Source: Yuukianura sp. NJ FZ-2021 (Eukaryota). Taken from it: 64,000 nt of DNA. The notes beneath the pieces are model-generated. The model had not been told where the DNA came from. It saw only the letters and a program-made list of their open reading frames with translations, and ran no database searches. Shown one piece after another: positions 12,287 to 41,357 of the stretch (positions are counted from its first letter, which is position 1; each line of letters opens with the position of its first letter). The position numbers were made by a program, and so were the translations under genes. The DNA lies in the NCBI GenBank assembly GCA_046563655.1, contig CM102283.1, positions 8,122,001-8,186,000 on the forward strand. The letters run 5' to 3'.

Positions 12287-15200
12287 TTAGTCGCCAAATC
12301 TTGAGCAGGCCTTCTTCCATTTGCACTGCGTGCACCAGAGATCCCTGCGTTCCATTCCATACACCTAAACAGAAACAAAATACATTAAAATTTTAAAACT
12401 TCAGCAAAAAAGTATTAAAAATTTGAAACTTTTCAGTTTATTCTAATAACTCCGTCTTACTTTTCGACACTTCTTGGTGTCTCCGCGCGGTCGCCTAACG
12501 GGACTTGACTTTGGTGATAGCCTCTTCTTTGGATTTCCATGAGTATTTCCGTTGCTTGCGTTACTCGGTGACTTACGATGCTGAAGTTGCAGTTGACTCA
12601 ATTTGTACTCTGGATCTGTTCAAATAATCAACATTTTCAGAAAATTTCATCACCATCTCCAATTTTAGTAATTCCTTATCCCAAAATTTTAGTACATTTT
12701 TCCTTGAGCAAAAAAATAGAAATGGCATCACTTCCTACGTCTCCGTTCCCAGTCATATTTTAATTCCGCCTACTCACTTGTCAGTCTCAATCACTTTACT
12801 TGACAATTACATTACACTTTACACCTCTCTCCCTTCTTTTGTTACTCTTACTAAAAATAACCTCCCACAAATCATCACATTTCCTTCACCAGCTCTAGCC
12901 TCTCTTATTCCCTTTTTCCATCCAAAATGTAGGTCAAGTCTCATTGATTGCAAAATTCATCATGGACTTGATGGCAAAAGCAGTCTCTCTCATTCAAAAG
13001 CAAGTGCTTCCAACGTCCTGTTGCGTTCTCAGTGCTTGATCTTAATGGAGTCCAAAACGAAATATTAAACTAATGGATGTCCCATGCCAAGCGAAATTAA
13101 AGCCCGCAGGAGCCTGTCCAATTTCAGCAGTACATTACAACAAAACAGCCTTCAACGACCGCCACCGCCTAACATTTTGCCCATAAATTCCAAAAATAAT
13201 CGATTTTGGAAATATTTAGTTCACAAACCTTCTGATGGGGGTCGAACCATGTCCATGTGGGAAAGTGTTGGGGAAAATGCCATGCCAAGACCCATCATGG
13301 ACGAGCCATAAGATGATGAAAACGTTGGAGAGAGATCAGGGATCTCAACTTCCGTGTAATAAAATTCCTCTTCATGATCATCCGAAACTTCGGATTTGGG
13401 GCTACAAAAGAAAAAATTAAAATATGTTAGAATTAAATTAAATTCAAAATTCACTAGTTTCTTTTTATACTTTTTGGCAAAATTGTTACCCTAAATGTGC
13501 ATAGCGAACATGAGCTTCAATTTCAAAACAACTGTCTTTGTACATGGAGCATCCTGGCCAAGTACATTCAAAGATAATCTTCACTTTCTTTTTCTTCGGT
13601 TGATCCAAATCCCAATCTCCAGTCCCATCACTTTCAATTCCATCGTCCGAAGAAGATGGAGTTGGACTGTGACTATTAAAGTGCATCTCCGCCGATCCGG
13701 TACTGGATCCTGCCGATCCAACAATTCCCGGCAAGCTGCTGCTCAACCATGACGATGCTCCGGATGAACTTGACGAACTCCATGAAGATGACACGAGTCC
13801 TGCAAAAATAAGAAAAAAACATCAATTAATTCAATTGCGTTTTACATAAAATTCATAAATGTCACAAAAACAATTTGAAATTATATTTTTTTTGCACCCC
13901 GCTGGTACCCATTTTTGCAAAAATCCATTTCCCGCGCTACTTTTTGTGTGCAAATTTGACCTCTTTGGCCTTCCCACTGACTTTGCCTAGAATCTGACAA
14001 ACATTGTTCCGTGTCATGAACAGAGAAATTCAGAGGAGCCGGAAGCAACATGCTTTTCTCCCGCTGTGTGACATACAAGATTCTCTCTCTGACACAACTT
14101 CCTGTCATCATCATCCTTTCATGTCAAAACACAAAAACTTGCACAGTACAACAAAATACTTTGTTACAAATTACACATAACATGCTCCGTTATTTTGACC
14201 AAATCCATCATAATAATCATACTCTAACTGAATGTTTTTCTCAAGGAGGAGGAAACAAGTTGCAAATTTTGCAAAGAGGATGATACAAGGTGCAAATAAT
14301 TTTGCATCATCCTCTCTCTGTTCTTGCATGATCCGGTTCTCGATTCAGTGCTGTGTGGCATGTTCCTCAACATTCGTTGTCCACATGCACCGTGACCTAA
14401 AACTTTACTATGCCAGTTCAACAAAGTCACATGACTCAAAATTTCATGGATTTGCACAATCTGTGTGTAAATACAGCTGGACAAGAGGAACGCTTTGACG
14501 CTTTTAGTTTTTCCAAGACATGAAACATGATTTGACGTATTTGAGGATGAGATGAATGAACATCCTTGGAACTTTAAATCTGTGATAATGCTTTTCAAAT
14601 TTCAATTCACCGGGTTCAAACTCTAAGACGCTTTTAGCTTAAGTGACGATGTTTTTACCAATTCTGCGCAGCCAAAAAAACGGAAGAGGAACCAGAAGTC
14701 TTTAAAAGCTAAAAACAACGACGCAGTTCAATCCATCAACAAAAACAAGCTCAAATAGCCGGCATGTGCGCTTCTCGAAACATGTCACTTTCCAGAAGTG
14801 AACTTTAAATGCGACTTGAATACATTAATTAGAACTTCATGCTTAGGCCGAGTGATGGCTTTGATTTTCCAGAGTGTGAAGAAGGTCATTAACCCAACAA
14901 ATCCTCCAACCACCACCACATAACCAAAACGCAATTCAAAAATTGCTACATGTGCACAACTAAAGTTTCTATTTTTGACTTTCGTTCAGGAACATTGCAC
15001 ACTTTCGTCAAAAAATAAAAAAAAAAACTCTCACTCTATAACCTACATTCTCCAAAATGCTTTAAAATCTTCCAAAATCTCCCAAAACTTCACCAATTTT
15101 AACATTTTACATCGTCACACGAAATCATATCATAACAATTATTATGGTGGACAATGCTTGTATCATGTGACGTCTAAAAATGATTTCAAAGCGCATTGAC

Positions 15201-18200: not shown

Positions 18201-21200
18201 AATATTAGGGAAAAACCAATTACTGAAATCCACTTTTGTTTAGTACTTTGTTTGGGATTAGACAAAATTAGGCCAATGTGCTTTCCTATCTCAACAAATG
18301 AGGAAATTTAGCTTATTTGTTCTTTAACTGTGTAGTATGCTATGCACACAGGGGAAATTACAAAAACAATTGTCCTCGTTCCTCCAGATTCCAGAAAGTA
18401 GCACAGTTCCAGCAAGCACAACTGCATAAACAATTTATACTTTTCCACTTTGTTCTACTGCAAACCACACAAAAAAACAGAAACGCAAACATATCTTTCA
18501 AAATAAAACAAAATTTTTAGCACCTTGGCCAAATTTTTAGCAAAACTAAAATTTATCATTACCACCAAAATACCGGGTATTACACCGGAAATTTCTGGAC
18601 GAATCCTGAACAATCCGAATTTCCGACTCCAGATATCCGCGAATGCTCCACTGCGCGCAAAGCCATACGAAATTAATGAACTTTCTCACAAAAAAAAGCT
18701 TTCTTTTTCATCATCAGCCAACATCAGCATCAGCAAGCATCTCCTTCTGCTATCTCCTAACATAACATAATCCCCAGAAATCCATAATGTGAAGAGTCAG
18801 AACTAAACGTAGGTGGTTCCAGAAAGTCAATTAAAGTTCCCAAAAGACTTCTACTGTAAGCCAACTTTCTTCGCGACTCATTAGAAGACACACGGAAGTG
18901 ACTTTGGCTCCACCATCTTAGCCTAACTGCCTAACCTAGTCCATAACCCAAACCTTATACTTGTAACTACGGCCCCACAGCCAACTAGTTACAGCAAGTC
19001 GACAGTGACAAGGATTTCAAGGATTTTAGCAACCGAGCCAAGGCTAACCTCGTACCTTAATTTCGCAAGGCACCTAACACATCCTCGTGCAGCTCAAAAT
19101 AGTTATTCACGTTTTGCAAAAATGAAACTGAAGAGTGATGAGAGCACGTTGGAAGTAGAAGTACCATGTGCCAGGCCATACCCTAACATTCCTAGCATGA
19201 ATTACACAAAACCTTAACAATTGAGTACAATGTTCAATGCATTTGCCAACTTTCAAGGTAACATTCACGTGCACGTCACTCCCTAATAATTCTTTTCTTG
19301 CCCACTTCAATGTTATTGCACAACCATTGAATAATAGGGAAGTGAACCATTAGATTCTGCAAACCGCTTTAACATTAGCTAACCAGCATAGCATAACATA
19401 TTCCCTTTCCTTTTCAATTCTTAATTACTAATCTAACTTCTAAACACAATGGATACAAACAAAAACCACAAATAGTTGAAAGCAAAACCTAAGAGTTAAA
19501 GGGCTGATCTTATGGTTAGTAGCAGACTTGTCAAAAGTATTTTGCATAAACCATGGAAATATTGAAGAAAAATTTAAATCGCCCAAATAATATACCTTTA
19601 CGTATTTTTATTTACGTAATATTTAACATTACGGGCATGCGAAAATAAATAACCGCTTAAAAACAAAAACTCCAAAAATATTTTTTCAATTAGCAGTAGG
19701 GGCATGGAGACTACACTTTTAACTAACAAAAAAAATCGAAAATAGTTTTCACATTAGCATATTACCAGCAAAGGGACTAAACATGTAGGAAACAATCGAA
19801 AATAGTTTTTAAACTGGCATTACTTGCACGGGATGACTAAATATTTTTAACACGTCTGCTTCGCAGAGCTCAATTTTCATTTTTTTTAGTCAACGTTTTT
19901 TTTTGCAACTAGGAAACTCCACTTGTTTCAGGATTGGTTTTCAAGGTGAGTTTGCCGGCCGGTCCACTCTTTCCTCTATTATTTTTGCAACATGCGCAAA
20001 AACTTTTTTTCCTTTGTCTTTTCCCCTCCACGTTCCAAGGCCAGTTTCCAAAATGGCCAAATCCAATCCAGCAGCTACAGCACAAGTACAAAGTGCAAAC
20101 ACGCAAATCTCTTTTTTTTGTTTTCCACGGCCATAAATGAATTCCCAGGCACATCGCAGGGGAACAGGTTTTGGCCTGCTGACATACATTCTGAGCTCCA
20201 CCCAAAAATAATTCTGCCATCTTCCTTATATAACAACCAGGAACAAAAACAATACCAAGAACAATAAAAGTTCTCATTCAAAGTCACCGTGTCATGCTAC
20301 TATCAATTCCACCGGGCGCGGCGTGGTTAGTTTCAAGTTTACCAAAAAAAATTGCATGCTTTTTTTCATACTCGTGTAGGAATGACCTTCGTTTTTTTGG
20401 AGTTCCACGTTCCACCCTTTGCTTTTGGAGTCCGTAATAGTTAAATCCGCAATTAAAAATTTAAAACGACTTCCCTAACTTAACCAAGGTCTCACTTTGG
20501 TCGTTTTTGGTTTCCAATTTTTTTTGGATTTCCTACTTTAAAAAAAATTACGAAACTAATCTATCTTTGTCATTTTTTCTTTAAAACTTATTGCAAGTAA
20601 TGCAAATCATTCAATAAAAAAACTGCGTCAATCAACAACCCAAAGTATTAGAAAACAAAATTATGAGGGGAAAAAATTACCAAAAATCAAAAGTATGCAA
20701 AATTGCCTAAAAGTGGAAAATTTTGTGGAAAAATGGAACGATTTCGAAACTACCGCACTTACTCAATCCATAGGAAATTCATGACTAAAAAACTCCAAAA
20801 CGTGACAAAATTTCCAAAAATTCCGCATTTTGATATATACTAAAACATTTCCTTTCAAAAATATTTTCTCCATTTTCCAAAAAAGTAAATTACGTACTGT
20901 AAGGCAGAAAAGGGGAGGAGATGACGAATAACATAGTAGATTTTTCCATTTTGCCTTGGAGTGTTATAACTCTGAAATGAAAGCACATTTGACCTAAATA
21001 AAAATCTAGGTCCAAACGCAGAGTCAGTCAAGCGGATTCAGAAAATTACGAGCGAAGACTTTCTGTGATTCCCATTCCGAAAATCCTTTTGACTCTAACA
21101 TTTCAAAAATGCTTTCAGCGTGAAGAAAAATGCACAGTAGAAGCCAAAAATCATTTTTTCCCAAAAACAAAATGGAAATCCTGTTCTTTTCATAACAAAA

Positions 21201-24200
21201 AGAAAATAACTCCTTTTCACAAAAATTTAAAGAAACTTATAACAAAAATGTATTAAAAAGAAGAAAAAGAAATTGTGCCAAATTTTCAGAAAATCAAAAA
21301 ACCACGCTCTGATGCCGCTCCAACTTCAACTTCTCTTTGTCTCTAACAGATATTTTCTAAATTCTAAATTTCAAAAACCTGTGCCAAAACTTAAAAAGGA
21401 AATGCTCCAAGTTAATCAGTATAAAAACACAAAAGTTCTAAACATTTCCTAGAAGAAAGAGAGAAAAAATAAACAGAATTTGAGCGGTACTTGATTCTAA
21501 TCCAAAAACAGATTTTGGCAAATGTGTGACCTTGGGAGCTCCACAAAGTGCCACTTTCGTCCTCTTTCGCCTACGCATTTGCCTTCTGCGTTCCAATTCG
21601 CACAATTTCAAACACACATCTCATTTCATTACAGAAAAAGTTTCCACCATTTTCAAAATTTCATGCATTTTCAATTCCAAATCGTTTTCTCTCGAATTTC
21701 ACCCTCAGTAATTCACAAAAAAAAAAAATCAAAATTTCACCACAAAAAAGAAATCACAATCACCAAAGAAATTTTTTTTTTACCTTGATATAATCATACC
21801 CACCGCAGTTTTTCTCACATTTTCTCATTAATCACCGGTTTTGTTACATTTCAAAATGTTTTTGACTTTTTAAATAAATTATTTAACTCGTTCTACAACA
21901 TTCTCACTTTAATCAACTCCTTTCAAACTGTAAAATCCGTCAGTCAAAAAATCATTTCCAATTTTCATTATACTAAATCCTATACCATACAATTACCTCG
22001 TAACCCATATTCCAACTCACCATCATCCTCTTCTGCAAATTACTACGCATATTTGCACTCTTAAATCTTTAACCCTCTTCCACTTGCGTACTACTACACC
22101 TACAATTTAAGAAATCTTCACACCGCTCATCATCATAATCACATCTCTTCAAAAACCTGTACAAACAATGTACTACATGCACTGTGTACTAACAAAATGG
22201 CGTGACTTTTTACAAACTAGCCCCACCTTCTACCCACTTCCGCATCTACACCTTATTCCATCAATCTCATTTTAAACATTAAAAAAAATCTAAGAATTAA
22301 AAATGTCGTACTCCACCGGCATGAAAAATGAGCATGAAAGTCACTTTGAACAAAATCATGTGATATGCAATTGCCAATCCACTTACAAATGCAATCACCT
22401 GATGACGATATTTTTCATTAAATTTACAATGTTAAACTACGCCACATCATACATCAGCACCACAATTACCCAACAACCAGAAGATTAATTCACTCAACCT
22501 TATTTTGAACTTGTAATCCACATTTTTATGATGACATTGGAAAAGTGGGAGGATGGGCGCTAGAAAGTGCAATGAACTGCACCAACTGATAAACATGTGA
22601 TTCCAGAAACATCTATCTCACATCATGCAATCTCCTCTTTTCCATTACCATCCTATTCCACTTAATTTCTCCACTACATAGTTAGTAATTTAATGCAACT
22701 TTTTAAAGTAACAACCAAGGATAAAAAGGTTATAAACCACAACCCCTGTTTTTGTTTTGGACAAATTGCAGAAGCTTTTAAAACTAAAGCTCCAGATGGA
22801 AAGTGAGTGATGAAAAGTCAAAAAAAATTGGAAATGCACTTTTTCTAGTGCAATTTAAACCTTTTGAAATCAGTCACAGTCCTTAAAAGGCCAAAAACCA
22901 AAAGCTTCTGTTTTATTATCTTCCATTTGACCTCTGCTGAGCCTTTCAAAAAAATATGGAAAGATGCAATGACCTACCGAAGGTTTTAAATTTAAGTGTT
23001 CATCGTAAACACTCCAAAATAACTTCAACACCAAAATCTAGAAGCTGTTGAGGCCATAATCTCCCATTTAAACTTCAAATCAAAAACAAACTCACAAAAT
23101 GCCCAATCAAAACCATTGTCCAAAATAAATAAAAAATTCAATTAAACTATAATAATATCAGCTAAAAAAGGCAAAAATAGCAAAAGCCAAAAGCAAACTC
23201 ATTCAAAAAAATCAAAAGAGATTTTATTGTGATTTTTACAAACGTTGCACAGCTCCTGTTAGTTTATCAGCGACCTCTGAACTCTGAATTTAAAAAATGT
23301 CAAATTTCAAAATTTCCCAACCTTTTAAACTCTCACCCAAAAAACCAATTTTTTCCAAATTTTTCCAACGTTAATAAATTTTCCTCTTTAAAAAAAGCAG
23401 AGTTGAAAGTATTGCCTTGTACTTGGCCAGAAAAGGCAGAAAAAGTGAACGGACGATAAGAAATGACTCAATCTGTTTCAAATTTTGCCTCTGTCCATTA
23501 TCAAGTTCAATGCTGCCGTTTGACTCTTCTGTGCCACTTTAACATCTAAAAGCCAAGTACACCACACAGAATTCACTTTAAAAAGATGATTAAATGCTAT
23601 TCCCATGCAGATAAATAGGACAATGGAGATACGTATGGTATTGTTTGCCTCTACTGCAATGCAATCCTGTGCATTCGGCATTCCTTTTAAACAGTAAGCC
23701 TTTATTTGCGTTACTTCCTTTCCTCACTTTTACCGCAACTTCATCATGACATGACAATGACAATACATTGCCCAAGTGACGTACATCTTTTCATGTGACA
23801 ACTGACGACAAACTCCAATTTGTCATCAATTCAAATTGCCGGGAGTGACGTCGGCTCTTCCAATTTTTCAAGCTTCTAATTTTTAATTTTTAAATCCCGC
23901 TTGTTGAAAAACCTTTGTTTAATCTTGTTAAAAAGCAGAGAAAGTAAATTTTGTGAAACTTACCGCTTTGATGATCCCACTTTGGCGAATGTGGACTGCA
24001 TGAAAGACTCATAAGGACCATAGCCGCTGCACACTCTTCCATCCCATTGTCTTTCCCATCAATACTGATCCCACCGGAAACGGAAGCCCCACCGCTACCC
24101 GCCATCACAGATTGGTACAGACTCACGCTACTTGGACGACGCTTGCGGGATCTAAAAACAATCATTTCAAATTAGACTAAAACCTCCACACCTTAAAACC

Positions 24201-27200
24201 ATAACCAATGGAAATGAAATAAAAACTGTTTCCTACTTTTCAAAAAACTTTTTTGAAATTTTCAATAAAGGAGTCATGGTTGCTCAGATGTAGATTAAAA
24301 GTGAAATGGAAATCAGATACGGAAATGTAAAATGTGTGAGCGACCAAGCCGGTTTCCGCTTTCCTGTTTAAAAGTACTTCTCGAAACGCACCAAACTACA
24401 CAACATTTAACAAAACCCGCAATGCCAAAATAACATTAGTCACTATCAGTATCATTTTTAGTTTTAAAAATTTAGACTCACTGTTTTCAAAACAATACAA
24501 ACCAGTTCGTTAAACTTTAGGGGCCATGGACTTCATAACACAAACTCTTTCATAACAAAAGAATAAACAAAATCATAAAATAACACATAAAAATGAAACA
24601 AAAATATTAAACTGTTTTTTTGTTATAGTCGTAAAAACAAAGCACGAGTAAATTAAGTGTTACACAAAAACATAAAAACACGTTTACAATCAATGCGTAA
24701 AGCGTAAAAAAAGAAAACAGCAAAATAGTGAAAGTTTGGAAGAAAAAAATTACAACTTTTCAAAAGAAAGTTGTCAAAAAAAATTCTTAACTTTACACGA
24801 AGTTGACAAAAAAAAAAGAGCAACTTCTCACCTTTCACCAAAATCAAAAATTTCGCCAGACTTCAATTTCAATCAACTTCAATCAATTTCTTTCCTCCTT
24901 TTTTTCTTTGCGTTTTTTGCAACTTCATAAACCAAAACTATTTAGTTTTTTTTTAAATCAAAACTAACGAGAAGCACAAACCACAATAAGTCAAAACACA
25001 AGAAACAAAGATTGAGAGCTCTCAGAAATAGCAAACTTGCAAATTTTTCGCAAATTGTTAAAATGCGACTCCAAACAAACAAAAAATTAGACCAAAAATG
25101 AATTGCGAATTTGCCAACAACACTGCCCTTACGTCACTTTACTGCGTTCCTAATCACCCTAACCTCAACAAACCTTAACATTTATCATTAAATTTTCCAA
25201 GTTGCCAAAACAAACAAAATTGGCAACAAAAAAAAGTTTCGTGAGGAAAAACAACTGTAAGCGTCATAAAATTCCTTATTACGACACAAAATCTTACTCA
25301 AAGCACAAGGTTACAAAAAAAAATTTTTTTTCCGCAAAAATCTCCGTCATACCTTTTAATTATTTCCGCGAGTTCTATCTTCCCAGTACATTTTTTTAAG
25401 CAAAAACAAGCCAACTGAAAACCGGCCGGTAAAAATTTATTCCTGCGCAATAAGAAAAGTATTACGTTTCACTTCAATGCGAAATAGAACTATCCAGAAA
25501 GGATTTGCTAAAAAGCTCGATGATGATAACAGTTCTCACAAACACTGACGCTTGTGTTTACTAGTTTGTACATAAACAATTTTTTGCACTGCTAAAATTT
25601 TTTTGCACTCTCAATTACGTTCAGCACGTGCTAAACTTTAAGTGAAGATGATCTCGTCGTCACAAGAGATGCTTCCCACTAACTTACTTCCACTGTTCCA
25701 CTTGAATCCATGTCAAACCAACAGTATTTAACATATTCAATGTAATATATTAAGTATAATACACAGTTTAACACAGTGTTAGTTTCCCGGCCGGTTTCTC
25801 ACTACAACCAAAGCTCCAAAAGTTGAACCAGCTTATTAAGCATCTCTGCCACTCAAAAAATGAATTCACATCGCCATACTCTTTGCTTTTCCTCTGACCT
25901 CACAAAATCACAATTCAAAAACGAATTTGCGCAGTTCTGCTCATTCACTCCACAATAACCTCTAAACTTTGTTTATACAGTAGGTTTCTAACCAAAACCG
26001 GCTTTCCAAACAACAAAAAGTTTCTGTTTTCAAAATTTAGTCACCGCTACTCCACTACTGCCCAACTTTTTCCACTTCCAGGTTTTTTTTACGAGGTCAA
26101 CAGGATTCCAGTAGCCAAACGTTAAAATGTAAATAAAAAATCCCAAAATGCAAACACTTCCACAGAACTTTTTATGACCATGCAAAAAAAAAAATTTTTT
26201 TTTTCCATTTGCAAAAACTGACGTAACTCTTTTACTTTCGCCTTTCGTTTCTCTGCATGAATTTGCACACAACTGACCCACATTTGCAAAAATTAAGCAT
26301 TTTTCTGGAAGTTCGCATACGGAAATTTTACATCAAGAAACTACAAGGTTTCACAGAAATTTCCCCACGTGCCCTCCCCTTTAATGCGCTTCCTCACTGG
26401 AAATCAATTCAAAACACTTCGTGGTAGGTGATGACGTTGCGGAAATGTGAAATAAGTACTTTGGTCGGTTAGGTTTTTACTTTTTCCGATTGCCAGTCCT
26501 CGTGTGGCGTCATTCAATAGTAATTTCGCTGTATTTTACTCAACGTAGTTACATCTATGGTCATTTGCAGAGAAAAAGAGAAGAAAATGCGTTTTTAGCT
26601 TTAGGTATACTACATCTTACCTACCCTAAAAATCGCACGAGCAACCATAAATCTTCAATTGAAATCAAAATCCTTCGAAGCCACTTTCCGCACGCGCCTG
26701 CGCAGCTTAAGTCGAGTGCGTTATGCGTCATTTTGCAAATTCAAAATCACAAACTCGTGCCTACCCTCGGCACGAGTCTAATAATTGTCTCTTATGCAAA
26801 AACAAAATCTTTTGGGATTGGAACTTGCCGTTCATAACTCAATGCCAAATTTTTTGCAGAAACGAAACACACAATTTTTTTTTCTATATTCTACACATGT
26901 ATATACACAATTTATATATGTATATTATTATAGTATGTAAAATCTAATAAGATATAATATACCACTCATGGTCACTTTATCCCATGACTTTCAATTGATC
27001 ATGCCTATTTCCACATTAGCACAAAAACTAGATTTCTTCATCACCCTTTCAAATTCTTCACAATCTTCTAGAATATTAAATTTCCATTGTTCTCTTCTCA
27101 CACTTTGCACAAAAAGTACAAAAACTCTCATTGTGTCATTAAACCACATTTTGAGCTACACTTCACTTCCAACTTGTAAATAATTAATTCCTAACATGAA

Positions 27201-30200
27201 AAGCAAAAGTGGAACTTCTGGAAGGCTAAACAAATACAGGTGAAGTCGAAATTGATGTTCCCTCACTCTTTCCAAAAAGCCTACAAGTAATCCAACGCCT
27301 ATAAAAAGTTTACAAGTAGTAGATCAAGGCCATTTTCGCCAAAATCTGCACATAGCCTTTATTATGCTCAAGTATACGTTATTTTCCGAAGGCGTAAATT
27401 ACTCATGCAGCTTCTTCAAAAATACTAAACAACACAAAATGTAAACACCATTTATAGAAAAGTTTACATTTTTAGTTGTTTTTCATTTTAAATTTCAAAA
27501 CACACATGTAAATTTAGCCTTCCGTAATATTCCACCATAACTTCTGAAATTAACTCTCTCCATTTTAGTAAAAGAAGTTTGAAGAGTTGTGAACTTGCGA
27601 AATCTGAAAGTGAAAAGTGAATAGGGCTTAAATTGGCGTTTTGCAATAAGCATATCATCTTTTATATCAAATGTTTCTATTCAGTAATTCAGTAAATCCC
27701 AGTAGCACTTTATACAATTGAAATGAAAATCCACCACTATTACATTACACCTTCATTCAGTAAAAAAAACATAATAAGTGTAATGTGCCAAAAGCGACTT
27801 ATTAAGCGACTTATTCACGTATGCGCAATTTTTATGCTTTTCCGCTCGCACTCTTTTCCATAAAAATTGTACACCTAGCGTACTATTTCACTCTAACTTT
27901 TTTTTTCATTAAGTTACCTTGTCTCTCGTACAAATTGCAAAGTAAGCCAAACAGTAGTGCGAAATCGTATAACAAATCTCGTTCCTCTCAAAAATGAGGA
28001 CAAGGCAACGCTAATCTTAGCCCATATTTTTTCCAACTCCTTGACCACTACCATTACCATCATCATTTTCTATGCCAATAAAACTGTGCAAAAAAATACT
28101 TTCATCATATTCGCAACAAGCACGTTAAAGTTATGTTATACCTGTGTTCCCAAAAGCCAACCATGCGCATCCACCACCATACCAAAATTTAAAGTTACCG
28201 CACTTAAGCATCATTAAAGTCTCCTTGATTAAAAATTGGAAAGCGAAACTTTAAAAGTCTAATCTTAGCATTCCTATAGTAGTAGAGTTAGTTAGTGTAA
28301 AAAGTTATTGTACATAGCTCGGCCACTAAAAAGTTAAGTTAATCATGGGGATGTTGCGGTTTGTTGTAAACCGGCCGGTAAAACCTCTGTACAGTCACAC
28401 TTCGACTTCATTATCTTTGCATGTTAAGGCAAACAAGGAACAACAACACACAAAACCAAAGAGAAATTTACAACGGGACTCTGGCGTGACCTTACTAATT
28501 TCTTCATTTTTTAGCTTATGCTAAAAATTGGGATAAATTTTGGAAAATTTCAAAATTTTGACTCACCCGTTGCCATTTTTCGGAACGTCAATGGAAGCTG
28601 TCTGTTGGTTTCTCTTGCGATCTGTACTGACATCAGCGAGCCGTGCAAAATCAAAATCCTGTTCCTGGAGACGTGCAGATTTTCGAGACTCCATCAATCG
28701 AACTTCGTCGAGTCTTTTGGTCACATCAAATGGAATCTGAAAAATTAAAAAAAATTGACATTATAAAAAATATCAGGAAGACAAACTTTGTAAAATGACA
28801 TTAGTTTATGCTTGAAGCAGCGGCAATCATTTTTGTTGCAAAGCAAATTCACATCAACTGTCACTCTCCTTTCCAATGATAGCCAAATACAAAAAAAAAG
28901 TAAGCAGCAATCTTCCATTATTCTTCACAGTCATTAATCACTGCTCACTTTTTTCATTTCAAAATTCACATTTGAAATGTTGCACAGATCACACAAATTG
29001 TCCCACAGAAAATTTTGCATCCGCAGGCCACGATGCGCAGAATTCTCATCATCATCATCATCATAAACCAGCATACAAAAACTTTTAAATACTAATGAGA
29101 ACGTGTAATTCCGCAATTGCATAGTTACCAATTGGTTGTTCGTTGCCCAAATTTTTCAAAATCAACCATTTTTGTTCATTTTTTGTGCCAAACCCACTGA
29201 AAACTAATTCTCACACTTTTCAACAAAGATTGAGTAAAAAACAATTTTTTATAATTTTTTTTTAAAGTTTCAAACTGGACTCACAAGTATTCCGATCCAG
29301 TAAAGAGAAATTTTTTGTCAAGTTTTTCAAAAAAAAATTTTTGAAAAAATATTCTCGTTTTAAATTTGCCGATTTCGACCAAAGTAAGGCAAATGAAAAT
29401 TAGTCAAGCGGATTTCTACAGAATTGTACTTAAAAGCTACAGTCACCAGGCGTCAGCTGCCCAAAATTGCTAAAACCCTTGGAAATCCTTGAGTCATTTA
29501 AATTGAAATGGTTAGTTGTTAAATTTAAAAGCCATTTCTCATACTATTCTAAAAAATCAAGAACCACAAGAAAAGCACTACAATAAGTCCCAGTTGTGCC
29601 GCCGCCACAAGATTAGTTTTCGCTACCTACTTAAAGTGACGATGACGACCACTTCCAACAAAAACTTGATAAAAATCCAATTTACAGTAGTGTACACCAA
29701 CTTTTTTACAAGTTTACGAAAGAGCTTCCATTTTATAAAGTAAGCACACCATTTTACGAAACAAAAACAAAAACTTTGTCCCAATTTCTTCCTTTACTAT
29801 TTTTTCTTTGTTACTTGGGACGTGACCATCATCGACAAGCCAAGTCTTGCTCTAAGCAAACTTTAGCATCAACATTAGCCAAAATGTAACTGTCCAAATT
29901 GAAATTAATTTAAATCTATATCAACTTAATTAATGCCAGAGGACGACACTTCCAAGCCACTCCTTGGCATTAAAAGGCGCCAAAGAAGAAGAAGCCTTCC
30001 ACGGGAATTAATTCTGTGTGAAATTCAGAGGATTTCAAGTTTGCAAAATCCCCAGTCCTTGCCAATTTTCAGCGTAACATTCAAGTTTTTTGGGCATTTG
30101 AATTCATTAAATGACTCTTTAACTCGTATAAATTAATTTCCAAAGTTACAATAATTTTAAACGTTATAATAAATTATAAATTAAAAAAGTACAATGTGTT

Positions 30201-33200
30201 TTTACCAAGGATACATTAGACACTTATCGCTTTAAGCTCACCAGTTTGTAGTTACTGTAGTTCAACTCACATTTTTTTTCCCAAAATGTGCGTGTGCAAA
30301 ATTCGGAAGGACCTCAAAACCCAACCACCTCAAAAATTTTTTGAACCGGTTTTTTTTATTTCAAAATTCTGATTCTTTTACGAGAATTTTAAATCCAAAC
30401 CAGAAAGTTTTCTGAGGGTATTCGTGCTGGTTCGTAAAAAACAGGATTTATAGTAACGCTAACATGTGAGGGAGGGAGCGGCGGTAAAGCAGTTCTTCAA
30501 AGTATAAAAAAGAAAACAAATAAATAAAAAAATACCGTAAAGTGAAATTATAAATTCAACTTGTGGACTTTAATGTCTACAATTCATGTACGAGTTGTAA
30601 CAGCTAGAAGCAAGCAGCAACAAGCATACAGGAAGTTCAAAGAAATTAAAAAACGAGTGACCAAACAGAACAATAAGGCAGTTAATACAGCAAATAAAAA
30701 TTCATTTGAAAAAATTAAAAAAATTACAATTTTTTTAAATTCTACACATTGTATTACAGTCACATCAACGGGAAGTTGCTAATAACATTTTCCATTGTTG
30801 TCACATTTTTTCCCATTGTGTAAATTTTTCTTTGTTTATAATTTAATAATAATGCAGAAATAATGCAAAACATTCATAATTAAACATAGTTCTCCACATT
30901 CAAGGAGTGAGAGGGAGAGAAAAGATTCTTACGAGAGATAAAAATTCTCTCATTTATAATGTATATGTGCAACATTTTATAAAAATTACTTACTATGCCA
31001 CAACGCTAGGCACATTTACTATCAAAATGGTTAGTTTTTTGCTAAGTAGCGGAGCGAAACCGTAAGTAAACTAACCGTACTTTGTCTAAACTAAAACTTT
31101 AACTTTTAAAAAACGCACTGTACAAAACTTTAACCTCACAAGACGTCATATTTGCTCATCCAATAAGCACAAACCGGGAAGTCAGGATCAGTAACTGGTG
31201 CTCACTAACACTAACAACTACGTTGAGTGATAGACCATGTAATTGCCACCTTTCAACTCAGGGTCATGTCCACATCAAACACGCCATTTCTAGTTACAGT
31301 TCTCTTTCGAAAGTAACCCATATTTCATCTCTAATTTTTTCAAACTTATCAAATTTTTTCTTAAAATTTTACTTCAACACTGTTATATTTTATAACACAT
31401 TGCTTTTGTTTCACAATTTCCTACAGTCAACAGACCCCTTACAGCGCAAATTCTCTTTTACTTTTTACAAAAATCCAAAGTGTAATTTACTCTAGTGCCA
31501 ACAAAAGAAAGAGAAAGCGTGTCTCTTCCTTCATGCAATTCGCATAACAATTTGACAAAAAGAGAGTGACACCAAAATGTGTCAACTCTGTCTTAATTTT
31601 ACAAGTCTTTCGTTGTGTTACAGCCTTACAGCAAAACAGCAAAATTATTTTGCCTACAGCAAAAAATTGATGTCGGTTCAACACACTGCAAATTTGTGAT
31701 TAATGCGAAACTGTGCTTACGGCTTTAGCCGATGTTACACCTTACAAAAAAACATGAACATGTCATTCACTTCAACTTTAGAACGAGTGACGGTTGGAGT
31801 CAATTTGCTCACCATTTTCTAAAAAAACGAAAACCGTAAAAAAGTTTTCGATTTTTTGTCGTTTTTTCCTCTCTTTTTTGCAAGTTCGTAACCCAGCAAC
31901 ACCGGATAAGCTCAGACAAGGTTTTGAATTACAGGAATGAACAAAAGAAAGCTAATTTCTAAATTATAGGTTTGGACATGGGCATAGCGTGATTTCAAAG
32001 ATAAAGCAAGAAGTAAATGACCCGTGTAGCAAAACCTTTGATGCTGATCATGAGGTAATGGCACAGCAAAATCCAAGGTTTGTTAAAACCAAAAACTCGA
32101 AAAACGAAGAAGATCAACTCTTTTGCTCGACTTTATAATCCAAAATTTAAATAGACTCTTGTCCATAAACCTCGTCAGAAACAACTTCAAAAGAGAAGTT
32201 CATAGAACTTTGCAAAGGTCATTCTGAGGTCACCGGCTAGTTGCTCAATTTTTTAGTCAAGTTGATGAGTCTGACTCATTTCCAAATCGTGCTCTGATTT
32301 AAATTGACAGATTCCAAAAATTAAGCACCTTTCACACTCTAATTTTAGTCTTCATACTCTGATTAAAGTTAGGCTTAGATTGCACATACGCCTAACCTAA
32401 TCAGAAGGTCATTGACCTCTTGATTAAATTCCAAATTATACTTAACATGTTTACAAAAAACTAACACTTATGCCTAATCATTAATTACTCAATGCTCCTG
32501 ATTTGGTGGTAAAAACCGTTCTTTTTCCTCCAAAAGAAAAATTTCCAGTAAAAACCGTCATTACGAAACGTATCAAGTGTGACGTGATTTAGCAACAAAA
32601 AAGGACATGACGATTCGCAAATTGCAAAAAATTGCAACAATTTCAACCCAAAAAGTGAATCAAGTAGGAAAACTGTTTTTTTTTATTTGCTGACAGAAGT
32701 CAGACCATCAGTTTTCAATTGATTACAAAAAGTCAACACCCGATAACATCAATTTCACAATTTCAGGTTGATTAGTCACCCCCATACAACTTTTTTTTTG
32801 CGAATTCACCGGACGCCAATATTCCCCTCACCGGCTTCCTCACAAACCATTTAGTCATTACACAGTTATTCAAAAAACGTTTACCAAAAAAACTTGTACA
32901 TTGGGAAACGTTAAAAAAAACTAAATACGTAAACCTACGTCTTCAAATTTAACATTTTAACTTCCTTGTATCCAGTGCTATTGTTTGCTCTTACTTTCAA
33001 AAAATACTATAAAAAAAAAACAAGACAAATTTATGATTCACCAGCACAAAGTAAAAATTTTTTTCATAAAACGTTTATGTTTATGAAATTTCTCACCTAG
33101 TAAGAAAGTTAAGAAATCATTGATTCATAATGCGAAATATTGCGCAAAATTGAAAAGCTTTTGACACCTTTTCAAATTCCTATTTACAATGTCCTTCCCT

Positions 33201-35267
33201 TTAAAGTAAGTAAAAGTGCACGTCAAAACCTATTGTTAGCCAAGGGAGTAGTGTAAAGTTCCGTTAAGGTTTTTAACACCATGTAAATTAAATAAAACCA
33301 AAGACTTAGAAGGCCGGGAAGGTTCAAATTTCAAATTTCACCAATGGCTAACCCTATGTATCCCGAAACCATAAGCCTCTTAGCATAACAAAAAGTAGCA
33401 CACGCTACTAATGCTGATGACTCAGTTAAAAATTCACACAAAAAATTTAAACAAAATTCAGCAAGATTTCAAATTAAAAAAAATATTGATGACATAGCTG
33501 AACTAGCCTTGCTAAAATTGCCATCCTAAGCTAAAACTAAAAAAAAGTCAACTACCAAAACTTCCTGTTTTCATCAGGTTTAAAATTTCAGAAAAAAAAA
33601 TCTCAAGTAGACAAAAAGTGTACACAGCTGAAATCTGCTGGACTCAAAAAAAAACTGACAGGAAGAAACTGATGACACAAGAAGATGAGAAACATGATAC
33701 AGTTGGCCATTTCCATTATACACACTCATTTTTTTCTATCCATCCTCCATGATTCTCAAAATTCAGAGTTTCTAGTTAGACTTGACTTGGAAAAGAAGAA
33801 GTTAATGAACTGAAGATGATGCAAACAAGGGAAACTACAACTTAAAAACCCGTACGACCGACCACAGGAAAAAAAAGACGCTACAACGTTGCTCATCTTC
33901 ACTTCACATCAAGAGGAGTAGACCAAAAGGGCTTTACCCCCACAAAAAAAATCATCAAAACATGCATTTTGGCCGTAAAACTTTTTTTTTGCAACAACTT
34001 TTCGTGTTGGTGCCTTGTGCAGTCAAATGCCGGTTAACCCCGTTGCTGTGCTTTTTCAATTCCCTTTTGCTTTAAAAATTTCACCCAGCAACAAACTCTT
34101 TAGCTTCATATGCTATGCATTTCCTCCCTTCATCAGCTTTATTTGTACATGCGCTGAAACGCTCCAGCGAAGGTCAAAATCGCTGCGTTCCCCACCCGCT
34201 TTCAAGCAAAAAACGGAGTAAAAGCTATATGGTTTTCAGCTGTTAGAAAAAAAGCCAATGCCACAAGCTACCCGGATACAACTTAGGTTGGCCCCGATTT
34301 ACACCGAAATTCTCAGAAGCAAGAAGCTTCTTTCTGCATTTTCTCGCCCGGCAACAGCAGAAGCACGTTTCACTTTCTCTACTTTTAGTTTTAGCAAGTT
34401 TTCAGCCCAATTTCAAAATGAAGCTTTCCACTTCTTCTCTTCTAATAAAACTAAAAGCGTCATTTCTTGTTAACACTTCCTCTTTTTGGAATGAAAACGA
34501 CGCAATTCGGAAGATCAAATATTTAACATTCTTGTAAACAGCGTGCTTCTTGAGTTTATTCACCCGAATAACAATCACGCATCAAGGAAATGCAAAAGAA
34601 CAAGGAAGCTTTCGGTTTCGTACAATTTTTCCGAAACGTTTTGGTGTCGTAATTGCCTGGAACCTTTTGGTTTCGTACAATTTTACTGGAAAATGAAACT
34701 GCTTTAGTTTCGTATTTTACAGGAAGCGTTCAGTTTAGTACAATTTTGGAAAATGGAAACCGTTTTGTACTTTACCAGAAGCTTTTGGTTTCGTACAATT
34801 TTAGTGGAAACTTCATGGCAAAATCCCGTAAAGCATAAAATGAGACAAAAAGCGAAATTAGGAAACTAATTTGGTCTTACCTCCGGTGAACCCGGTTGTG
34901 CCTGAGCTTGGACGTTGATGAGAACTTCATCGCGTGCCGGTTGGTGGTAAACCACAGTGCCCATGACCTCACGGCCATTGTATGTCACCCAAGCCTTTTG
35001 ACCATTCCGTAGTTTCAGGTTACTGATGTTTCCAAATCCAGAGCCAATGAGGTCCGATTCTCCAAATTCCCGGGTATCCCCGTTTTCAAACCGGACAATA
35101 TACTTGTTATTCGGACTAATTCCAGAGACGTTGGCAAAAAACGGATGATCTTCTGGCGACTTGGAGCCAATGATGGTTCCGGGTTGGTAGAATCCACTTT
35201 CTTTGACATATGCAGAGATGCGCGTGCCGACGATTGACCTCTTGGCCAATCTCTTTGCAGTAGACAT
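12287..35267 (-). CDS. ZNF704: ZNF704/ZNF395/SLC2A4RG-family (Glut4EF-like) C2H2 zinc finger + C-clamp transcription factor, ~486 aa
   Basis: Exons 35267-34881, 28736-28567, 24151-23964, 13799-13490, 13401-13229, 12615-12461, 12364-12287, phase-consistent (1461 nt). N-terminus MSTAKRLAKRSIVGTRI..., RLDEVRLMESRKSARL, conserved MEECAAAMVLMSLSCSP, single C2H2 finger FECTWPGC...IEAHVRYAHLG, DHEEEFYYTEVE, and C-terminal C-clamp [34 protein letters not shown]. Probably the single invertebrate co-ortholog of the three vertebrate genes. Confidence 0.93.
22566..22578. promoter_or_regulatory. hsp27-type EcRE-like IR-1 (AGTTCA-T-TGCACT on the minus strand)
   Basis: Plus strand AGTGCAATGAACT; close to the Drosophila hsp27 EcRE (GGTTCAATGCACT). 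Confidence 0.4.
32197..32418. promoter_or_regulatory. Nuclear-receptor element cluster: perfect IR-1 (EcR/USP-type), DR5 and an imperfect IR-1
   Basis: AGGTCA-T-TGACCT at 32406-32418; AGGTCA-TTCTG-AGGTCA at 32216-32232; AGTTCA-T-AGAACT at 32197-32209. Confidence 0.55.
34611..34810. repeat. Degenerate tandem repeat, ~25-35 bp units with core GGTTTCGTACAATTTT
   Basis: About 7 diverged units. The core is near-intact at ~34614, ~34669 and ~34787. It lies in the intron just after the first coding exon of the ZNF704-like gene. Confidence 0.7.
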
Positions 35268-37060
35268 GATTTCTGTTTTGAAACTTGCTGTTTTGACCAG
35301 TAAAGTTGATGATTGCGTGGGCTGTTTTAACCAAAACGAGAGTGAAACTGAGACTGCCCGTTAATTACTGATTGTTGTGAGTTTTATAGACTGAGGTTGG
35401 AGCTTGTGGAGTAATAGGCCAATGTCAATTTGAGCACTAGGGCTATTAAAAAGCTCCAGCGAATCAATAACTAAGTCTCAATGACAAAATGTTGATTGTC
35501 ACAGGAGTTAATTAATTGGTGATGAGAGGCGAAAGTGATGATGAGGGAATGACGTCTGCCAATAATAGTCAACTTGACACTTCTTTTTATGATTTGTACT
35601 TGCTGCTGTGCTGCTGAAGTGATGTAAACAAGGCAATAACCGACTTTTCCTTGTGTGCAAAGTCAACAGAATCTAAAAACAACACAAAAATAGAACGTTT
35701 TTTAATCTCCGTATTATAGCACCAAGCTGGCTGTCACTTTTTGCTCATGTTGTGCAATTTGATCTTTGATAGCTTGGAGTTTTCGTGACGTCGAATACTT
35801 CAACAGCGTCTTCCTGAAACACCAGTGTTAAACACTAGGTAAAGCGTTACATTTAGTACGTTTTAGCTAGTAAACTTAGGCAATTCCTACTTAACTTTTT
35901 AGTTAGGGTCAAAGGGGTCACCTAAGGTACTTGAGCACTGCGCATGACTGTGCAGGACAGATGATACCGAAAGTACAGTAGTTAGAGTTCCAAGTACGTC
36001 ATAAATGTACTTGAAGGTCTTCCATATCGTTAAGAAATTTACAACCGTGTGTGTTTCCATTTCCACACCATAACGACAGCATCAGCAGGGATTCATGATG
36101 TTGCCACCATCAGATGTTCGGGGCTCTCCCTGCTTAGCAACAGCAAAAAATCTCGTCAACAATAGATCCCCTTACTATTTCTTCCTGAATCCATGATTTA
36201 ACAAAAGGCTGGAAGGCATAAAACCAAAATACAAACTCTTTGCGTGTTGATCATCTTCTGAAAAGGGGACTTCAAGATCACAAACTTCAGAATCCTGCAA
36301 AGTACTCCCCCCTTTCCCTTTCTCCCTTCAAGTATCTCTCAGGTGATCGACTTTTACTTGAAACAGAACAAAGAAAATGAAAACGAAGTGAGTATGCGCT
36401 AAGGGATAAGCCCTTGGAAGGCTGACCTCAAATGAATACCAACATTTACGAGGTCACAGATTCCCAGAGGTCAGATTCCACTTCATGTCCACTTCCGTCT
36501 CAAAATCAACAATGCCGGCTACCGGCGCCTCTCTTGTCGTTACAGTGACAAGACAATGTAAATGATGATGATGAACTGAACTAACGTTTGTGTGACGATT
36601 ACCGGCACCACTAACTTTCATTTGTGATTAACTTATAATTAAAAATGAATTAGACATTACCTGTGGTTTCTTGGATTGTAGAATTTTGAACTTTTGAAGA
36701 TAGTAGAGGCAGTTTGGTTAGTTGACGAGACGTTTTCGTTGAACTAGTAGATTGAAGATTTGAACTGTTTCTACACTGGGTTAGGCGGGACACGGTCCAG
36801 ATCACGGAGTAGTCGTAGATGTGGTGGGCCTGGGTGGGGCGTCAAAGTTCGGTTGACATCTTTCGACGACAGAAGATGAGTGTGTTTGGCAGAATCCCTT
36901 GGATTCATGGTTTGAGAGCCGGGTAGATGTGGGTCAGAGGGTGAACCGAAGTGACCCTGGAGTGAGATTGAGTACTTGAAGGGGTTCGGTGTACCGAAGT
37001 GGTGTCCAGAAACACAGCTTAGCAACAATGGAGACTGTTTTTTGACGTTTGTTCAGTTTG
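35268..37060 (-). other. Probable 5' UTR of the ZNF704-like gene with an upstream non-coding exon
   Basis: Minus-strand acceptor GTTTTTAG|ATTC near 35673 and donor CACAG|GTAATG at 36661/36660. The GC-richer 36661-37200 region looks like a first exon and promoter. The TSS position is approximate. Confidence 0.4.
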
Positions 37061-40000
37061 AGATGCGGAGAGCGAGTGAGAGGAGAGAAGGCCGAATCTT
37101 TGTTTTGTTATTGAAAACCAGCTGGGATAGGATGAACCTCACGCGCCAACTCCCACCGCACCACCACATTCTTAAGCCTACCTCACACTTCACGACGCAA
37201 CACGGTCGCGCGCGGTTATTAGAAATAATAAACTATGTAATATAAAATATTAATACGGGAAATAGATAATAATTTATCGAAAAGGTATGCCATAAATTGG
37301 AAATTGAAAACAGATGTTTCCTGTTCTATGGACGAGCTGTATTACAAGAGTAATTTTTTACAACAAAAATTAATTTAGTTTCACCTAAAGTAAACCATCA
37401 AAAAAGTCAATATTTTATTGAGTTTGATTGTTTTCAGTGCCATCAAGTTTTTACATGTGATTTTGGCTACAAGTGTTTTACTGTAAAACCTTTAAGAGTA
37501 AATTTTAAAACTAGTTGCATACACAGTTATTTATTTCGATTGATATTTTTGGCTTACAATTACGATAAAAGAGATTTTAAGATAAAACACATACTGATTT
37601 TTAACATTGTAGCTTCAATGTCAAGCATACCCACAAAGATTATTGGAGTTTTAGTGGAAATTATTAGAACGCCGATTCGTCAAAAATTCGCGTACCAAGG
37701 GAGTGGCGTGGACAGGGCTTAAGAGGGGTTGATATTTTGATATAGCCAAGTTCTGTCAATTCTGTTTCCTTTTCCCTAGAAAATGAATTTTGTTGAATTT
37801 TCCATTCAAATAATTTTTTTTCAAAAATACCTACTTGCGATTCTTAAATTTTTGGAGAATCATCTTTTGAATTTAATGCAAAAATGAATGGACATTTCGT
37901 TTCAGTTGGTAGGATCTTGCCGAAGATGATATGAGTTGAATTTAAATGGCCGATTTTCCCCTAATCCTGCGTCACTTTTTCCCCTGTTCCCTCCCAGCTG
38001 ATTCCATATTTACCCTCACAGATGACGATGACGTAATTCCCTTAAGCTCCGCCCATACCCAAAACCAAGTTATCATTCAACCAAGGTCATTTTACCACAA
38101 ACTTAACTAAACCTCACGAACTGTTTACACCCATCACTCTTCGTGTCTGTTCAGAACTTGTTCAAACAACTTTTAGCTCAATTAAATTACCACGCACACA
38201 CAAATCTTCTGATATCTTAATTTTTTCCAAGGAAGAGAGAACCAGAATTTAGAAATGTTGACCTTGGCTATAATTAAAGTCGGGGAAATCTAAACCACAA
38301 AAATACTTGCCGGCCGGGCCGGTCAGTGGCAGAGTGTGAAATGAGGTCAAGTTTTCTGAAAAAGAAGAAAATGGAAGTAGGCCAGAGGTCAAGGCCACCC
38401 GCGACATTTTGGCGTCCCGGGGATCGCAACCGGATTTCCTGGAATTTGAAATTACTTTTTTTTCAAGAATTTCGGAATTTCCGCGGCTCTAAAAATTTTC
38501 AGCCCTATTTTTGAAATGGGCGGACTTCGTTTCACTGGAAATGATCTGTAGACTGTCATTTCAGCATGACCAAATCGTCGTTTTCCTCACATCTTCATCT
38601 AACCGCTGCTGCTTCTGGCATCATCCTGGTTAAAAAAAAAGTTATAAAATGGAAGCCTAGATTTCCTGTGCTGATTCGGACATTTCCGTGACCTAGATTC
38701 AGCGCTGCTTCTCAATCGAATCTACACGCTGCCGCTTTTCTCAAGGCTTTCACTGCAGCAGCAGCGACCTAAGTTTCGTTCATCTTCAAAAGCAAAGTCA
38801 GCTCAAGCCGAAAGCCTTAGTAGGTTACATTTTCCCGGGAAAACTTTTTTCTGGATGTTCCCATTTGAATTTTCCTGCCGTTGGCGCTGTTATACGATTG
38901 AGGACAATCGATTTTTCATTTCCTTTGGGTGTTAGTCAAACGGTGCGTGCCCGTGCCCTTCAAAAGAAAAAAAAAGTAGTTCAGTTAGCAACAAGAGCAA
39001 AGGTTTTGCTGCAAAACCTAACCATAGTTAAGCCATTTCCAGAAAACCTGTCCAGAAGAAGCCTTACAAAACCCTATAATCAATATTTGCAAACCTTTTT
39101 TTCCAAAATCGAAAACTCAAAATTTGACAACTTCATCAATTTCGGATTTGAAAGTAAACAAGTTCCGAAAGGAGAAGCTCAGAAAAAGCAAATTGGCGGT
39201 TTTTTGTGCTCAAAGATGAAAACGAGGTCATCTTGTATGGTTCTGGATCTCCGTCATCTGTACCATACGGCTTATTTGTCCTACTACCCGGGTTTTCTAC
39301 GCATTATACCGGGAGAGAATCGATCCGATTCCTCCACGTGGCAAGGGCATACGGACTGACGCACACAAAAATAAGGGCTCCCGTGTACATATTTAGAGAT
39401 TTAGTAAAGGGCTCTTCAAAAAAGCCTAGCTCAACTTAAGTATTTCATTACGATGCTAAAACTTCGGAATCGATCGCTCATTTTCTAAAAATGGAAAGAA
39501 ATAAGATCTTCACTTTCGCTTTTAAGAGTCGAAGCGCTCGAAATTCCTGGAATTACTTTTCGCCAAAATCTAAATTCGCAGATTCTCATTTCATTTCCTC
39601 GTTTTTGCAAAAAGTGAAACCGAGCACCGTTTTTTGTAGCAACGACCTTGTAAGCTAAGAGAAGCTAAGAGAAGAAGGTCACCGGAGTTTTAGTATCTAG
39701 CGGTGTATAGTTACCACTTTGAGCTTTTTTTAGAACATGAAATTAAAAAAAATGTTTCAACTTTTTGTGTTTTTCAAAAAGTTGCAAACTAACGACAACA
39801 GGAAGGAGGGCTATTTGTGAATTGCGATTCCGCAATAATTTGTTGAATTATTTATGAAGAATCCATTGTCTAATATGAAAATTGCAGAAACGATGACCCT
39901 GTGAACGGGGTGAGTTGCGAATTTATGAGGAATGACAATATGCAGACGTTAAGAATTTTTATAAGGCTCATCCTTAAGTCCCCCTTGACATGTTGTCTCT

Positions 40001-40859: not shown

Positions 40860-41357
40860 TTAACCGCGACGACCTCCACCTCTGCCCCTCCCGCCGCCTC
40901 CACGGCGTCCTCCTCCTCCTCGTCTGCCTCCACCGTGGCCTCTGTGTCCACCGTGGCCGTGACCTCTGTGTCCACCGTGGCCTCTGTGTCCACCGTGATG
41001 ATGACCGCGATGACCGTGACTGTGGTGATGGTGATGATGATGGTGCCCTCTATTTAAGACTTGGCGGATCCGATTTCCCACAATCCTGCCAGCACCAGCT
41101 ACGTGATGGGGTCTTAGACATCGTCGTCCAAGCAGTTGCAGCTCGCGACATGACGTGCCAATGAAAATTTGTCGTTTCTCGCGCAGTCGCAGTACGTTGC
41201 TTTTTAAGGCATCTGATACTTCGTTGTCCGAGGAAACAAAAGATACTGCGCAACACAGGATGGACAGAACTACGAAAAATGTCACCTGGAAATAAAAATG
41301 TTGATTAAAACAAGTTAACAATTTAAATAGAAGTAAATGTTATTAAATTACCTTCAT
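40860..41357 (-). CDS. Orphan secreted His/Gly/Arg-rich prepropeptide, 143 aa (candidate antimicrobial or metal-binding peptide)
   Basis: Exon 1 41357-41352 (ATG AAG|GTAATT) and exon 2 41285-40860 (TTCCAG|GTG). MKVTFFVVLSILCCAVSFVSS (signal peptide), DNEVSDALKSNVLRLREKR (pro-piece with furin site), then QIFIGTSCRELQLLGRRCLRPHH...GHHHHHHHHSHGHRG(HGGHRG)n...GGRRGGGGRGRGGGRRG*. Confidence 0.8.

Follow-up and report, generated by a model that had tools for sequence, protein, structure and literature searches.

A cluster of palindromic octamers at a C-clamp transcription-factor gene suggests possible autoregulation

We analyzed a 64,000-nucleotide stretch of DNA from Yuukianura sp. NJ FZ-2021 (GenBank assembly GCA_046563655.1, contig CM102283.1, positions 8,122,001 to 8,186,000 of the forward strand), here called the window, whose own positions are used throughout. 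The window contains a minus-strand gene at 12287-35267 that is predicted to encode a C-clamp transcription factor, and a GC-only palindromic octamer, CCGGCCGG, that occurs exactly five times when both strands of the 64000 bases are searched. The copies begin at 19955, 25422, 25787, 28371 and 38310. A first-pass annotation, made from the letters alone, had named these positions and proposed that the gene regulates itself through them; the octamer is present at all five, and there is no other copy on either strand of the 64 kb.

The C-clamp gene has seven coding exons, from an ATG at 35267 to a stop codon at 12287. The exons were mapped by tblastn with six named arthropod and mite orthologues, whose annotations read zinc finger protein 395, zinc finger protein 704 or glucose transporter 4 enhancer factor. 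As read from these exons, the encoded protein is a Glut4EF/ZNF395/ZNF704/SLC2A4RG-type factor with a DUF4772 domain, one C2H2 finger and a C-terminal C-clamp. Coding exon 1 (34881..35267, on the minus strand like all that follow) begins with the ATG, ends at a GTAAGA donor and is placed by both Pfam and tblastn. Its DUF4772 domain matches Pfam PF15997 at 34866-35360 on the minus strand (E = 7.4e-25, 88.3 bits against a cut-off of 27), and the exon is 35-43% identical to insect, mite and annelid proteins. Coding exon 2 (28567..28736) carries a conserved KRLDEVRLMESRKSARL block and coding exon 3 (23964..24151) carries ECAAAMVLMSLS, inside which the residues AAMVL form an AAxxL motif of the Sin3A-type repression class (motif class after passages of PMC9890238); tblastn places these two exons and the next three. 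Coding exon 4 (13490..13710, with an approximate 5′ boundary) encodes the single C2H2 finger, FECTWPGC...HVRYAHLG at 13656-13489, which tblastn aligned to five of the six orthologues, the sixth having no match there, while Pfam gave no zinc-finger match for it at E <= 1. Coding exon 5 (13229..13401) carries the DDHEEEFYYTEVE block.

The C-clamp is encoded by the last two exons and is split by a 96-nt phase-0 intron (12365-12460) between ..KKCRK and VYGMERRD... We judged this domain by a solved human chain, PDB 7dta_A (the C-clamp of human SLC2A4RG), and not by a Pfam model. Coding exon 6 (12461..12580) contributes the first part and ends in GDTKKCRK, compared to GDAKKCRK in 7dta_A. Coding exon 7 (12287..12364), placed by its similarity to the same chain, contributes the second part and the stop codon; 21 of its 25 compared residues are identical to residues 9-33 of 7dta_A (E = 5.3e-12). 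All four cysteines of the C-clamp are present. Pfam, tblastn and the 7dta_A comparison agree with the earlier statement that the locus encodes a C-clamp transcription factor.

Upstream of the ATG, a putative non-coding first exon may occupy 36661..37150 on the minus strand, as read from the sequence, with CAG|GTAATG as its donor. On the plus strand, a sustained negative GC skew (-0.16 to -0.28) accompanied by a positive AT skew extends over 12000-34000 and ends at about 34 kb. This interval coincides with the minus-strand transcription unit, and the pattern looks like transcription-associated strand asymmetry.

Four of the five octamers lie within introns of the C-clamp gene. Site 1 (GCCGGCCGGT, 19955..19962) is in the intron that separates coding exon 3 from coding exon 4, ~4.0 kb downstream of the former. 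Site 2 (AAACCGGCCGGTAAAA, 25422..25429) and site 3 (CCCGGCCGGT, 25787..25794), 365 bp apart, share the intron that separates coding exons 2 and 3; site 2 is 1.27 kb upstream of exon 3. Site 4 (28371..28378) is in that intron too, 189 nt from its start at coding exon 2, and its asymmetric 16-mer, again AAACCGGCCGGTAAAA, is identical to that of site 2 and in the same orientation. Site 5 is intergenic and extends to CCGGCCGGGCCGGT (38310..38323), a 14-bp stretch with three CCGG. The ATG of the C-clamp gene is 3.0 kb away and that of a divergent gene with a DM13 domain 2.0 kb away, with site 5 upstream of both; the putative first exon, if correct, would place site 5 ~1.2 kb upstream of the transcription start of the C-clamp gene. 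The octamers had been described as confined to the C-clamp locus, which is accurate for the four intronic sites; site 5, in contrast, is in the divergent region and nearer the DM13 gene's ATG.

The sequences that directly border the octamers are partly shared. A purine and a pyrimidine enclose the octamer at 19955 (G..T), 25422 (A..T) and 28371 (A..T), so that three sites are full RCCGGCCGGY and two of them identical, as the first-pass annotation had it. The form CCGGCCGGT is the reading of four of the five sites, and the fifth, CCGGCCGGGCCGGT, ends in GCCGGT. Paired GCCGG/ACCGG sites had also been reported at 36514-36529, and GCCGGCTACCGGCG is found there (36514..36529), with two CCGG that are 7 bp apart from start to start. 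We regard it as a candidate weak C-clamp site, which would lie ~130 nt inside the putative first intron.

Beyond these borders, the octamers are isolated GC-only words in DNA of 30-41% GC. When 508-bp segments (250 bp on each side of an octamer) were compared to the window by blastn, nothing was shared except a 19-bp match between sites 2 and 4, and Tandem Repeats Finder reported no repeat at any of the five sites. An origin from a repeat or a transposon remnant within the window was rejected because blastn found no shared flanks; the sites belonging to a repeat family had been named as a refutation of the proposal, and within the window they form no such family. The flanks do not share companion motifs either, as nine 7-mers are common to at least three of the five flanks, compared to a random mean of 9.7. 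Hidden exons at site 1 were considered and rejected: open reading frames at 19909-20277 (minus strand) and 19950-20267 (plus strand) overlap it, but neither translation looks protein-like. The former has no Pfam family, and the latter has a sub-threshold match to PhoLip_ATPase_N (E = 0.0094, 16.1 bits against a cut-off of 29). An open reading frame adjoining site 5 (38697-39359) likewise matched no family and appears non-coding, and there were no Rfam matches in the window. About 110 bp before site 1 there is a local 60-bp duplication, 19730-19784 against 19790-19844, with 75% identity.

Five copies greatly exceed what the composition of the window predicts. Dinucleotide shuffles of the whole window contained CCGGCCGG 0.09 times on average and never reached five copies in 100 trials. 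Shuffling within 2-kb blocks, which keeps the local GC content, gave 0.095 copies on average and at most 3, so that five was reached in none of 3000 shuffles. Markov models of orders 0 to 4 expect 0.09-0.28 copies in the window. The 27-kb locus (12001-39000) holds all five copies against 0.03-0.19 expected. The other 37 kb of the window, more GC-rich, holds none against 0.06-0.12 expected, and the first-pass annotation was correct in seeing no copy there. Its estimate that 0.01-0.02 copies would occur by chance in 26 kb had the right order of magnitude, although the value was slightly low (0.03 at order 0 for 27 kb).

The enrichment is limited to the exact word. Three variants of CCGGCCGG with one mismatch were seen, one of them overlapping site 5, where 3.2-4.6 would be expected. 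CCGG pairs favor one spacing: abutting pairs occur five times, while each other spacing up to 24 bp occurs one to three times.

Since CCGGCCGG had been picked before testing, we also ranked it among other words. It is the top-enriched of the 256 palindromic 8-mers (p = 1.1e-5 under an order-3 model; the runner-up has p = 4.6e-3). Among all 8-mers with at least four copies it ranks 13th under the same model, and the 12 higher words are all non-palindromic; most are A/T-rich or triplet-repeat words, and the TTAGG-like AGGTTAGG and GCGTTACA are also among them. At least five copies of any GC-only 8-mer were found in 3 of 3000 shuffles. A Bonferroni correction over ~32,900 words yields 0.36 at order 3 (1.1e-5 multiplied by ~32,900) and ~0.0014 at order 1. 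By itself, the excess is strong but not overwhelming, and the compelling part is the identity of the word.

That word is the binding motif of the family encoded at the locus. Passages of the Codebook preprint state that SLC2A4RG and ZNF395 appear to owe their specificity to the C-clamp, and that the ZNF704 matrix of Yin et al. (2017), which the preprint cites, is virtually identical to the SLC2A4RG/ZNF395 motif, CCGGCCGG (PMC11601247). The palindromic ZNF704 motif named in the first-pass annotation is correct, as the same passages give CCGGCCGG for all three human members. The five copies in the window are exact matches to this published consensus. In the same preprint, AlphaFold3 modeling put two molecules of SLC2A4RG on a single site (PMC11601247), and, according to an excerpt of another study, ZNF395 and SLC2A4RG bind DNA solely through the C-clamp and require CCGG (PMC5339479). 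Flies have a single homologue, Glut4EF, and TCF/Pangolin is their sole other C-clamp protein, as stated in parts of PMC3896468 and PMC4999783.

Because the most enriched palindromic 8-mer is the motif of the family encoded at the locus, we infer autoregulation: the five octamers would be high-affinity sites for the C-clamp protein of their own gene, which would feed back on its own transcription, most likely negatively. We give this reading about an even chance of being correct and regard it as well founded, short of a demonstration. The C-clamp of the encoded protein may read CCGGCCGG, probably with two molecules per palindrome. Protein bound at the four intronic sites and the one upstream site would then act on the gene's own transcription, and negative feedback, the most likely form, would damp or self-limit its expression. 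These three elements, binding by the protein, an effect on its own gene and the sign of that effect, go beyond what was observed, which comprises the octamers and their excess, the gene with its C-clamp and the family motif.

The negative sign is favored because the AAxxL motif is kept and because Sin3A/HDAC mediates repression by the relatives in fly and human. Passages of PMC9890238 describe a repressive domain that was mapped in fly Glut4EF and contains a strongly conserved AAxxL motif, a type linked to Sin3A. The portions of a ZNF704 preprint that concern its mode of action describe a repressor associated with SIN3A (bioRxiv 10.1101/2020.01.09.900548), and ZNF395 recruits SIN3A/HDAC in the excerpted text of PMC3781154.

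Several considerations weigh against autoregulation. A Markov model of order 5 expects 1.04 copies of CCGGCCGG (p = 0.004), although this model is circular, as its 6-mer counts in 64 kb come mostly from the CCGGCCGG sites themselves. The background by which the octamer is judged rare consists of 37 kb of neighboring, mostly short-intron genes in the same window. At the conservative order 3, and with correction for all 8-mers, the excess alone is not significant. Real clusters of binding sites usually include weaker variants, and here the variants are at chance level. Of the two ATGs that flank site 5, that of the DM13 gene is nearer than that of the C-clamp gene. Excerpts of PMC3781154 report that ZNF395 can activate as well, so that the sign is uncertain. 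Finally, the literature matches listed contained no report of autoregulation in the Glut4EF/ZNF395/ZNF704/SLC2A4RG family; in the portions of the ZNF704 preprint that matched, the lone occurrence of 'autoregulat' concerns the circadian clock.

The word may instead be common in the long introns of this genome, whether through mutation, a repeat or an unrelated factor, so that its match to the family motif is a coincidence; we consider this unlikely. The rarity of CCGGCCGG is gauged within the 64-kb window alone, the asymmetric 16-mer of site 2 recurs at site 4 without a change of orientation, and exact copies without degenerate relatives fit a copying process as well as they fit strong selection. 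However, the flanks are alike over 19 bp at most, the more GC-rich 37 kb contain no copy at all, and it is specifically abutting CCGG pairs that are favored. It would also be very improbable for an enriched 8-mer to coincide with the known motif of the window's one sequence-specific factor. The products of the other genes identified, HMG-CoA reductase, an SMN-Tudor protein, Med1 and VPS15, are not sequence-specific DNA binders. If CCGGCCGG proved common genome-wide, the finding would be ordinary.

The octamers may be genuine C-clamp sites that serve other targets or a general chromatin function, with site 5 acting on the DM13 gene and the intronic sites on HMG-CoA reductase, for example. This seems rather unlikely to us. 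The proximity of site 5 to the DM13 gene's ATG (2.0 kb, compared to 3.0 kb for the C-clamp gene) argues for it, as does the convergent arrangement of the HMG-CoA reductase gene (5271-8446) and the C-clamp gene. In contrast, four of the five sites are intronic to the C-clamp gene itself and are separated from all other genes by 8-20 kb, and the putative first exon would bring the start of the C-clamp gene to within ~1.2 kb of site 5. Service to a neighboring gene is therefore possible for site 5 and unlikely for the four intronic sites.

A C-clamp of a different protein could also be the reader, in which case the octamers would be TCF/Pangolin helper sites and the gene a Wnt target. TCF C-clamps do bind GC-rich helper sites (PMC4267635, PMC3896468), but this explanation is very improbable here. 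The window contains 85 copies of the HMG site CTTTGWW, though none lies within 40 bp of any of the five octamers, and the helper words RCCGCC and GCCGCCR are not contained in CCGGCCGG and are scattered over the window in 28 and 10 copies, respectively. Similarly, a CCGG reader of another family, such as a Grainyhead/CP2-type protein, could use AAACCGG or CCGGTAAA halves, and the A-rich flanks of two sites do resemble half of the Grainyhead/CP2-type motif, AACCGGTT. We find this even harder to credit, as such flanks occur at two of the five sites, each half departs from the consensus, and the exact AACCGGTT occurs once in the window, at 30344, away from the five sites. Least credible of all is that the self-complementary octamers pair intron 2 with intron 3 in the pre-mRNA and loop out exon 3 with its repression motif: exon 3 is flanked by three sites upstream and one downstream and GC-only 8-mers are rare in these AT-rich introns, but the complementarity is at most 10 nt with A-rich flanks on both sides, eight to ten base pairs are short for long-range pairing, site 5 is outside the coding transcript, and skipping the 188-nt exon 3 would break the reading frame.

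Autoregulation may be combined with a hormonal input. A perfect inverted AGGTCA repeat, AGGTCATTGACCT, which resembles an ecdysone response element, is present at 32406..32418 in intron 1 of the C-clamp gene. A degenerate inverted-repeat consensus matches the window once against 0.09 expected, and at least one match was obtained in 9 of 100 shuffles. The AGGTCA-type words TGACCTCA and AGAGGTCA have 10 copies each in the window against ~1.8 expected. Three GAGGTCA half-sites fall within 50 bp at 36423-36473, and two more, at 38343 and 38385 (in a group spanning 38343-38391), come right after site 5, one of them reading AGAGGTCAAGGCCA. These words are compatible with input from a nuclear receptor. 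A hormone-triggered pulse of expression, as the first-pass annotation had suggested, would be speculation built on one perfect inverted repeat and scattered half-sites.

A TTAGG-like word (CCTAACCTAATCAGA) starts at 32391, just before the inverted repeat AGGTCATTGACCT. More broadly, the TTAGG-type words AGGTTAGG and CCTAACCT have nine copies in the window against 0.8 expected, seven of them inside the C-clamp gene. Their positions are 5955, 16298, 17187-17199, 17515, 18930, 25158, 32391 and 53550, each with two to three units and without forming an array.

The C-clamp gene shares a 5-kb intergenic region with the divergent plus-strand gene, which encodes a signal peptide and a DM13 domain and has its ATG at ~40320. 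The DM13 exon is closely followed by an 18/24-bp tandem repeat at 40929-40997 (CCGTGACCTCTGTGTCCACCGTGG), which may be a coding repeat. On the other side, HMG-CoA reductase is encoded on the plus strand at 5271-8446, and its 3′ end is ~3.8 kb from that of the C-clamp gene; the best match of its exon is a springtail protein (69% identity). Pfam further identified genes for the SMN-Tudor protein, Med1 and VPS15 in the window. A tandem array with a 20-bp unit, AAACCCAGTGTAACGCTATG, in ~11 copies with a 64% match lies at 63020-63232, and it accounts for the excess of the GCGTTACA and TAACGCTA words.

The targets of non-TCF C-clamp factors in vivo are poorly defined, and, for arthropod Glut4EF, the literature excerpts (PMC3896468 among the sources) mention mainly a wing-posture phenotype and its use as an expression marker. 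Perfect sites clustered in the gene of the factor itself offer a concrete and cheap hypothesis, with five 8-bp elements and one protein, and they make the locus a positive control for binding assays. If the pattern recurs in orthologous loci, the human CCGGCCGG specificity would be conserved across bilaterians and self-regulation would be a family trait. A bolder version, which we consider a long shot, is that the exact-only octamers, with an identical asymmetric 16-mer at two of them, are dimer sites under strong purifying selection, that they belong to an ancient dosage-sensing negative feedback in Glut4EF/ZNF395/ZNF704-type genes, and that together with the intron-1 repeat they produce a self-terminating, steroid-triggered pulse of the factor. 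Should such clusters be shared by orthologous loci from insects to vertebrates, this version would supply the first defined in vivo circuit for non-TCF C-clamp proteins.

Among known systems, the closest in sequence is the binding of human ZNF704, ZNF395 and SLC2A4RG. Our literature search returned no motif for an arthropod member of the family and no paper with both Glut4EF and SELEX. As far as passages on the human proteins describe them, the core word CCGGCCGG is identical, the order of domains is the same, and the palindrome fits the two-molecule AlphaFold3 model. The human motifs, however, were determined in vitro and belong to GC-rich promoters, whereas the sites here are predicted ones, isolated in the AT-rich introns of an invertebrate. 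TCF/Pangolin offers another likeness. Its helper sites (RCCGCC or GCCGCCR beside HMG sites) likewise have a C-clamp reading a short GC-rich word, but that word differs from CCGGCCGG and the five octamers have no HMG site within 40 bp.

Two further systems involve the same human proteins at single targets. HDBP1 and HDBP2 (SLC2A4RG and ZNF395) bind GC-rich repeats in the promoter of the Huntington's disease gene, and ZNF395, as PBF, binds CCGG in papillomavirus E2 sites (both as cited in passages of PMC3896468 and PMC5339479). In these accounts, binding needs no domain other than the C-clamp and depends on CCGG, features that would apply to the octamers as well; unlike the octamers, the known sites are single promoter elements of other genes and do not cluster in the gene that encodes the factor. 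The 7-bp Huntington's disease consensus is GCCGGCG, which has one copy in the window, at 54227, away from the C-clamp locus.

The regulatory logic has parallels among developmental transcription factors, for example in Caenorhabditis elegans, where TBX-2 and UNC-3 exert negative autoregulation through sites in their own genes, according to PMC4478547 and PMC13192591, respectively. Those loops were demonstrated genetically, whereas the loop proposed here is deduced from sequence alone. Like them, the C-clamp locus would combine the factor's own motif in its own regulatory DNA with a repressor domain. A transcription factor with its own motif in its own gene is a kind of arrangement that is already known, to which this locus would add a new case.

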